Origin: a virus
Lineage: Duplodnaviria; Heunggongvirae; Uroviricota; Caudoviricetes
Length of the DNA stretch: 27,751 bases
Strand: one strand, 5' to 3'
IMG/VR virus record: IMGVR_UViG_2879742664_000010
The notes under the pieces are model-generated. The model saw only the letters and a list, made by a program, of their open reading frames with translations. It had not been told where the DNA came from and did no database searches. Made by a program: the position numbers and the translations under genes. Position 1 is the first letter of the stretch; every line of letters begins with the position of its first letter. Below are positions 10,644-13,024 of this stretch, piece by piece.

Positions 10644-11020
10644 ATGGACTGTGTGCAGTTTGTTCCCGATCCGAAAAAACGCAGCATCCGGAGACCGCTT
10701 GTTGAAGAGGATATTGAAGAAATCATTACCCGTCTTAATCTGCGTGCGGAGGTCTTTAAGCTGCATGTGGATTTTTTCGCTACCGTCGTCAGCTAGATAT
10801 CCCCCCGCGTTATCTCGACCCCGACAGACCGTTCGGGGTGGTGGATTACGTTAATGTTCCCCGTACCATTGCGACCGTTATCTCCTCCGGTAAGGCTTCA
10901 AAAGCTGAACTGGATTCTGTCCTTGGTGTGCAGGACTTATGGGATCTGCTGGAAATAATTCATGTGGATGCCCATAACGAACAGGTGATACAGGAGAACA
11001 GAAATGGCGCAGGTACTTGA
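10644..11020 (+). pseudogene. Remnant of a tail assembly chaperone pair (lambda G/GT-like) with a conserved -1 slippery site; 5' end removed by IS600
   Basis: Zero frame MDCVQFVPDPKKRS...KLHVDFFATVVS* (10644..10796); the -1 frame continues from the heptamer T TTT TTC to 11020, overlapping the start of the tape-measure-like gene. Confidence 0.45.
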
Positions 11021-13024
11021 TGAGCTTGTTCTGTCCCTCGGGATTGATGACAGGGACTTTACTGCCGGGGAACAGGCAGTACATGCTGCCCTTAACCGGC
11101 TCACGACGGTGATGGAAGGTGTCGCTGACACATTCAGTCAGGGACAGAAGAAAACCAGTGAATCACTGGAAAAAACCGGAAAAGATGCTGATAAAACGGC
11201 CCGTCGAATGGAAGATGCCGGGAAACGGGCGTCCCGTTTTTTTTCAGGGATCCGTAGCGAGATTCTGGCTCTTGCGGGTGTCAGTCTGACGCTGGGGGGG
11301 CTGAAGAACCTGGTAACAGGTTTTGCCCGTGATCTGAACCGTCTGTCCGTGGAATCCGATGCTTTTGGCATGAAGGCCAGAAATCTGGACGGATGGTTAC
11401 GGGCTGCGCGGGCAAATAATGTTGATGAAGGGGAAATGTCTGGGGCATTTTCCCGGCTTGCAAATGCAAAAGCGGCCTTCAGAGCCGGAAGGTCCTTTGA
11501 TCCTGTGTTACAGGATTTGTTTCAGGTTGCAGCCAGGGCGGGCATTAGTGTTGATTTAAATACTGACAGCACTGAAGCCATCATGCGCAAGCTGGCGGTT
11601 ATTTTTCCGCGACTGACAAAGTCCGAACAAACTGCCTACGGCAACGCGCTGGGCTTCAGTTATGCCGGACAGCAGTTTCTTGGCTCCGGTCATGCGCTGA
11701 AAGATGTGGACGAATTTACTTCCCGTTCGCAGGTTACGCCGGGGCGTACAGCGCTGGCCCGTAAGCTACGAAAAGAGCTTGTTGAGCTCGATCAGACCTG
11801 GTCCGGCATCGGGATGACGATTAGCACCGCGTTGATGCCGTACGCGCTGAAGCTCAGCCACTGGCTGGAGACACTCGGTGACTGGATGCAGCAACATCCG
11901 GAGGAAGTGAACAGGTTTATCACCACATTTCTGAATGACGTTGAGTCAGTGGCCTCCCTGGCGAATAAGGCTGCCGGAGAACTGGGGGGCTGGCAGAATG
12001 TCATTATTACGCTGATCGGGCTGAAAGTGGCGTCATGGGTGCGGGGGCTGACAAAAGCCCTCAGTGGCCCCGGAGGCCTTCTTTTTGCGATAACGGCGCT
12101 TTACCCGGTTGTTGACGGATTACTGACATCCATTGTTGGCAGGGAAAATAAGGACTGGCTGGATTCACATGGTTTTTTCTGGGCTTCAGACGGGACTTTC
12201 TTTTTCAATAAGAAAGAGATGGAGACGTATCAGACAAAACTGGATGCCGGAGAAAAGCCTGGCAACATCACCCGGGCACAATCACCCACAGTATGGCAGC
12301 AGGGCATGCTGGATACTCAGGCTTCTCAGGCAACCGGGAGGGAAGCAGCCTTCGGTGAATCCTGGCTACAGGGTATGCGTGCGACGCAGGAAAAACTCGG
12401 TAATGCCATGCAAAACCGCCAGCGACCGACGAAGACCGGGGAAGCCCTGTTAGGCTGGCTGCAACCGAAACTGTCTCAACTGGAGGAAAAATATAACCTG
12501 CCGCCCGGACTGCTGCGCAGCGTTGCGATCACCGAATCCCGTGGTAATCAGTTTGCCGTCTCACCTGCTGGTGCGATGGGACTGTTTCAGTTCATGCCGA
12601 AGACGGCCAGTGAATTTGGTCTGAGGGGAACGATGCCTTTGATCCCGAAAAAGCCGCTGATGCCGCCGCGAGAAAACTTGGTGGCCTGATACGTTTTTTT
12701 CATGGCGATCTGGCTAAGGCTCTGGCGGCATATAACTGGGGAGAGGGAAATGTTCAGCGTAAGGGACTGGCTGCTGCTCCGGAGGAGACCCGCAACTATA
12801 TTCCGCGGGTGCTGGCGAACCTGCCTTATCCGGGTGCGGCAATGGCCATACGGTCGCTCCATCCTGCGCCTGTATCGCAGTCCACCGTAACGGAAACCAC
12901 GCATATCGGGACACTGAATGTCACCACAACGTCGGACAATGTGAAGGGTATTACCGATGACGCACGTCGGCGTATCACGAATTCGGCGCTTGTGTCGGTT
13001 TATTCCAGCGGGGTAACAGGATGA
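11004..13024 (+). pseudogene. Tape-measure-like tail protein with a C-terminal lytic transglycosylase (SLT) domain, frameshifted in a G-run near 12625
   Basis: SD AGGAGA before the ATG at 11004; SLT motif ITESRGNQFAVSPAGAMGLFQFMPKTASEFGL in frame 1, continuation DAFDPEKAADAAARKLGG...ALAAYNWGEGNV in another frame ending at 13024; restoring one G at 12625..12628 joins them into about 673 aa. Confidence 0.6.

Follow-up and report, generated by a model that had tools for sequence, protein, structure and literature searches.

The analysed window, a stretch of 27,751 nucleotides from the genome of Shigella flexneri serotype 6 strain 64-5500 (CP026811.1), holds a remnant of a contractile-tailed, ipaH-carrying prophage cut up by the insertion sequences (IS) IS600, IS1 and IS66. 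It contains the gene of a putative tape measure protein with an embedded SLT lytic transglycosylase domain (11004..13024), which is split between two reading frames at a run of four G residues. The following features of this gene were identified:

11004..12689, plus strand, 5' part of the tape measure/SLT gene; open reading frame (ORF) of 561 amino acids with a premature stop 61 nt past the G run
11991..12137, plus strand, two hydrophobic segments (residues 330-346 and 357-378) found in a Kyte-Doolittle scan
12480..12796, plus strand, predicted SLT lytic transglycosylase domain (residues 493-598 of the repaired protein; Pfam PF01464)
12625..12628, plus strand, G4 homopolymer, the site of a 1-bp deletion; G5 in all homologues examined
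12629..13024, plus strand, 3' part of the tape measure/SLT gene, read in frame -1; encodes the second SLT half and a C-terminal tail of 75 amino acids

The G4 homopolymer lies within the sequence GGT CTG AGG GGA ACG (12616..12630). The frame starting at 11004 reads ...AITESRGNQFAVSPAGAMGLFQFMPKTASEFGLRGTMPLIPKKPLMPPRENLVA*, with the stop codon at 12687..12689; the 561 codons of this ORF include ...AITESRGNQFAVSPAGAMGLFQFMPKTASEFGLRG, followed by unrelated residues until the stop. The -1 frame, which contains ...EGNDAFDPEKAADAAARKLGGLIRFFHGDLAKALAAYNWGEGNVQRKGL... and reads NDAFDPEKAADAAARKLGGLIRFFHGDLAKALAAYNWGEGNVQRKGL..., is open from 12614 up to the stop codon at 13022..13024. Insertion of a fifth G into the run gives a single protein (11004..13024), and its stop codon and the start codon of the following ORF (13021..13731) overlap in ATGA (13021..13024). 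This protein has exactly 673 amino acids, the length and the ending proposed in the initial annotation, which had been made from the sequence of the window and had located the break at the G run. In alignments with intact homologues the only indel of the gene falls there, with G5 in the homologues and G4 in the window.

The 5' fragment matches positions 6-57 of the Pfam SLT profile PF01464 (E=1.6e-13, 50.7 bits), and the 3' fragment matches positions 60-116 (E=5.6e-9, 36.0 bits), the curated gathering cut-off of the profile being 21.3 bits. Since the fragments match the profile independently and contiguously, the observation of a split gene is confirmed and is not due to chance; by these profile matches, the two ORF fragments are contiguous halves of one predicted SLT domain. 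The claim that SLT homology is present in both frames, including the second one, therefore stands. In the intact homologue the domain occupies residues 493-598 and scores 90.2 bits.

All motifs of family 1 lytic transglycosylases, namely, E-S, the GLMQ-like motif and AYNxG, were found in the repaired protein. The predicted catalytic pair E511-S512 lies inside ITESRG (12528..12545), the motif GLFQF is represented by residues 526-530 (12579..12593), and AAYNWGEG by residues 575-582 (12725..12748). The frameshift is positioned between the second and third of these motifs, so that AAYNWGEG is out of frame in the window. All three motifs align with the transglycosylase chains 7eyb_I and 6yt5_G of T7 gp16, and cleavage of peptidoglycan is the predicted function of the domain. 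The domain had been described as C-terminal; its presence is supported, but it is not strictly C-terminal, as a tail of 75 residues follows it in the protein of 673 residues.

Position and matches to PHROG families led to the assignment of the gene as a putative tape measure with an embedded SLT domain. The best PHROG family is phrog_2013, ‘lytic tail protein’, matched over the full length of the protein (E=8e-246). The N-terminal 460-600 residues match several tape measure families, in particular phrog_2276 (E=1.2e-29, residues 1-607) and phrog_9570 (E=2.9e-20, residues 1-463), as well as phrog_8125 and phrog_1506. The gene sits between a chaperone pair with a -1 slippery site and baseplate genes, which is the position of a tape measure gene. 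Together with the gene order of the intact prophage of enteroinvasive Escherichia coli (EIEC), the matches to phrog_2276 and phrog_9570 support the description of the protein as tape-measure-like in the initial annotation. Two results weigh against this assignment: none of the Pfam and NCBIfam tape measure models matched the protein, and the single-sequence AlphaFold2 model, in which residues 1-390 are nearly all helix, is of low confidence (mean predicted local distance difference test score, pLDDT, of 43.9). The two hydrophobic segments are the most hydrophobic stretch of the protein, with a Kyte-Doolittle peak of 1.8 at residue 360.

Accordingly arranged, the intact protein of 673 amino acids would consist of a long, predicted-helical N-terminal ‘ruler’ with two hydrophobic segments, the SLT domain and, at the C-terminus, a short tail. 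By analogy with gp41 of Pseudomonas phage Pa193 (Pbunavirus; PDB 9B45), it may be located in the tail lumen with the C-terminus anchored to the tail tip and hub, and upon infection it would be ejected, after which the SLT domain could cut peptidoglycan locally. Pa193 gp41 has a putative transglycosylase domain at residues 491-582 and is bound to the tail tip and hub through its C-terminal residues; as proposed by the authors, peptidoglycan would be digested by the domain following ejection (PMC11456595). Residues 465-579 of gp41 match residues 463-580 of the query (E=6.7e-10). Like gp41, the protein of the window would be a tape measure of a contractile tail, with the SLT domain embedded at the same relative position (491-582 in gp41 and 493-598 here) and a C-terminal segment after it, and the neighbouring baseplate genes of the window match hub and plug families of the E217/Pam3 type. 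Differences from gp41 are that the similarity covers the SLT domain only, that gp41 has 858 amino acids versus 673, that the host is another one, and that the gene of the window belongs to a defective prophage. Tape measures with peptidoglycan hydrolase domains are well documented, Pa193 gp41 and the TM4 tape measure among them (PMC11456595).

The best match to the SLT domain among solved structures is T7 gp16 (PDB 7EYB, 6YT5), a virion-borne protein whose SLT domain is ejected into the periplasm. In contrast to the protein of the window, T7 gp16 is an ejection protein of a podovirus and not a tape measure, its SLT domain is N-terminal, and no homology extends beyond that domain. Full-length homologues (99% coverage) were found in the temperate Klebsiella phages ST899-OXA48phi17.1, klb_E and KpnBHU6, where the tail gene is annotated as ‘transglycosylase’; these are the closest deposited phage relatives, yet their amino acid identity is only 34-35%. 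A near-identity DNA search of deposited phage genomes gave no match to the gene, and the protein-level phage search gave only relatives at no more than 35% identity.

Near-identical DNA (99.7-99.9% over 2021 bases) is present in nine complete E. coli genomes. The counterpart in the ipaH prophage of E. coli CFSAN029787, WP_046880349.1 ‘lytic transglycosylase domain-containing protein’, shares with the gene of the window this DNA identity, the neighbouring genes and the ATGA overlap. Unlike the window, the RefSeq copies of EIEC and Shigella have G5 and an intact protein of 673 amino acids, and the prophage of CFSAN029787 is essentially complete. The protein is thus already known in both EIEC and Shigella under this RefSeq name, and the finding of the gene is ordinary.

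The G4 form of the run was found to be a singleton. G5 is present at the site in both EIEC genomes aligned and in all 10 further Shigella loci carrying the repaired protein (L004-L013); seven of these loci come from Shigella chromosomes, complete or nearly so, in which the IS600 and IS66 junctions are shared with the window. The aligned homologues (12/12) therefore have G5 and read in one frame. The repaired allele (P0016), identical to the repaired protein of the window, was found on 186 contigs, and two other intact alleles were found on 188 and 100 contigs, whereas the exact product of 561 amino acids is encoded on a single contig, CP026811.1; the intact alleles together account for more than 470 contigs. 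Exact-pattern scans of JGI metagenome contigs and of GTDB species-representative genomes matched neither the G4 nor the G5 allele and are uninformative. Truncated forms of the gene, with 332 amino acids, are present on 91 contigs. Relative to the two EIEC copies, three non-synonymous and two synonymous substitutions were counted in the gene.

The initial annotation had left two alternatives, pseudogenisation of the gene and a homopolymer base-calling error, and both were judged to be sound. The comparison of G5 and G4 among homologues, which it had suggested, gave G5 everywhere else; this favours, but does not prove, a base-calling error. A second contraction private to this assembly was found 6.6 kb away, at 6041..6045, where the window has G5 versus G6 in 7/7 sister loci. 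It splits a gene of the YdaT_toxin family (5937..6358 in the window) into ORFs of 58 and 101 amino acids, versus a protein of 140 amino acids in all seven sisters. No private substitutions were found where 6-10 comparators cover the window; two extra comparators cover 24012..27751, and there one candidate private substitution was noted at 27650 (C in the window versus T in both comparators covering the site, n=2). Consensus error is favoured because two G runs show private single-base contractions, both disrupting genes that relatives carry intact, versus none or one private substitution. Accession CP026832, a neighbour of CP026811, is described in a citation as a PacBio sequence of the set of 59 historical Shigella strains of Kim et al. 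2018. As judged from these comparisons of sequences, the recording of G5 as G4 is probably an error, a homopolymer deletion left in the consensus of long (PacBio) reads.

Several points weigh against a sequencing error. That strain 64-5500 (CP026811) belongs to the same PacBio set is deduced from its name and from the block of accession numbers, and the platform is deduced from the citation on CP026832. The comparison rests on assemblies, and G4 may be the true sequence of the strain. A gene of a remnant prophage is under no selection, homopolymer slippage is the commonest natural indel, and two indels versus zero or one substitution make a small sample. Other homopolymer frameshift alleles of the same gene were also detected, namely, P0014, in the T7 run 12694..12700, on one contig of S. 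boydii, and P0008, in the G5 run 12043..12047, on three contigs of E. coli.

These two alleles, independent of the G4 form and found elsewhere, speak in favour of a real strain-private pseudogenisation, in which one G would have been lost by slipped-strand mutation in the lineage or laboratory stock of 64-5500. In this case the tape measure, ending at residue 561, would lack both the AYNxG motif and the anchoring tail at the C-terminus, and the truncation would be one step in the continuing decay of a dead prophage. The prophage, being already non-functional and riddled with IS elements, would leave the gene free to decay, and Shigella genomes are known for extensive pseudogenisation. Against such a mutation, G4 occurs on one contig versus more than 470 with intact alleles, and the closest sister genomes, with an identical IS architecture, all have G5. 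Natural indels in E. coli are roughly ten-fold rarer than substitutions. The second private G-run contraction in the same 27 kb, with no more than one private substitution, corresponds to the residual error profile of PacBio-only assemblies and not to a spectrum of natural mutations. A private mutation is accordingly considered the less likely explanation.

Co-option of the transglycosylase by the host, for instance, for local remodelling of peptidoglycan, is very unlikely; under this reading the gene would be domesticated, and G4 a genuine loss-of-function variant of it. The point behind it is that more than 470 contigs of Shigella and EIEC retain an intact ORF, even if the prophage around it was destroyed by IS elements. 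Recent common descent of the remnant is a simpler explanation of this retention, and the ratio of three non-synonymous to two synonymous substitutions gives no sign of purifying selection.

A programmed -1 frameshift, transcriptional slippage or phase variation driven by the G run is hardly credible and was rejected: a -1 shift at the run would restore the full frame, and tail clusters do use programmed -1 frameshifting, although in the upstream chaperone gene, but all 12 of the aligned homologues are single-frame with G5 and have no conserved shift, the zero-frame sequence CUG AGG GGA ACG contains no slippery heptamer X_XXY_YYZ, tract length varies only once in more than 470 contigs, and the tract, with 4-5 bases, is below 7 and falls far short of the slippage or contingency tracts known.

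The main weight of the result concerns data quality, as at least two spurious-looking G-run frameshifts are present within 27 kb of one assembly. Gene decay would be overestimated by pseudogene counts based on CP026811.1, and probably also by those based on Shigella assemblies of a similar, long-read-only kind. Biologically, a tape measure with a predicted peptidoglycan-cleaving domain in a well-known Shigella ipaH prophage remnant is routine, and no open question is advanced by it.

The genes and elements adjacent to the tape measure gene are represented by the following:

9378..10641, plus strand, copy of IS600, joining the late holin gene to the end of the chaperone gene
10641..11020, plus strand, remnant of a putative G/GT-type tail assembly chaperone pair; frame-0 ORF up to 10796, 5' end lost to IS600 at 10641
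13021..13731, plus strand, baseplate protein (Dit-like; Pfam Dit_like, E=8.4e-7), ‘phage baseplate protein’ in the EIEC annotation
13731..14033, plus strand, baseplate plug protein (Pam3 gp18 family; Pfam PF22479, E=1.3e-22), the last prophage gene before IS66
14055..19074, plus strand, IS66-family element with a second full copy inside, replacing hub, spike and most wedge genes

The gene order of the EIEC prophage was read from the annotation of two of the nine E. coli genomes. Upstream of the tape measure gene, it comprises genes for lysis, terminase, portal and capsid, neck, DUF3383 sheath and tube, and two small genes of 134 and 60 amino acids; from the tape measure gene on, it is continued by genes for the baseplate protein, plug, hub, spike, baseplate J and tail fibres, and by ipaH. 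The two small genes upstream of the tape measure gene resemble a G/GT chaperone pair. The chaperone remnant of the window contains a slippery heptamer T_TTT_TTC (10772..10778) shortly before its frame-0 ORF ends; from there the -1 frame continues without a stop to 11020, past the start of the tape measure gene.

In comparison with the intact EIEC prophage, the IS600 copy at 9378..10641 replaces the terminase, portal, capsid, neck, sheath and tube genes. Up to the nested IS66, the tape measure gene, the Dit-like baseplate gene and the plug gene are all that is left. The prophage remnant is non-viable, and tails are not producible whatever the state of the tape measure gene. Because head, sheath, tube and hub genes are lacking, the contraction to G4 is without phenotypic consequence, be it an error or a mutation. 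In several copies of IS600 (at 1977, 3893..3899 and 23690), the A7/T7 run at the frameshift window varies by one base between assemblies, which suggests homopolymer noise in some of the comparators or real variation at a programmed frameshift site.

The IS66-family element has a length of 2506 bp and ORFs of 139, 116 and 530 amino acids. An identical inner copy (14937..17442), inserted at position 882 of the element, is flanked by the 8-bp duplication AAAACGGC. The nested IS66 is also present in the sister genomes L005 and L007, while L008 contains a single copy. A misassembly was rejected as the origin of the IS66 duplication on the grounds of the clean nested insertion, the 8-bp target duplication and its recurrence in independent sisters.

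On the 3' side of the nested IS66, another IS element, a wedge fragment, tail fibre genes interrupted by IS600, and ipaH were found. The ipaH effector gene (25940..27751, minus strand) extends past the right end of the window; in sister loci it encodes a protein of 608 amino acids with LRR_TTSS and NEL domains. The location of chromosomal ipaH genes in prophage remnants is established. A DUF4376 gene, located close to the right end of the window, is present in multiple copies across ipaH islands.

In the left part of the window, an IS3-family element (6504..8305), with an ORF of 100 amino acids for a helix-turn-helix protein and a truncated rve ORF of 179 amino acids, is interrupted by IS1 at 7552..8305, a further case of one IS inside another in this remnant. 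Over the whole window, the plus strand contains 23 G runs versus three C runs of five or more bases at a G+C content of 50.7%, an asymmetry that is probably a codon effect of the coding strand. Four prophage-borne tRNA genes (8586..8896; CAT, Arg-TCT, Thr-TGT and Gly-TCC) are located between an IS1 and the holin gene; their counterparts in the EIEC prophage, with about 95% DNA identity, are annotated as Ile, Arg, Thr and Val.
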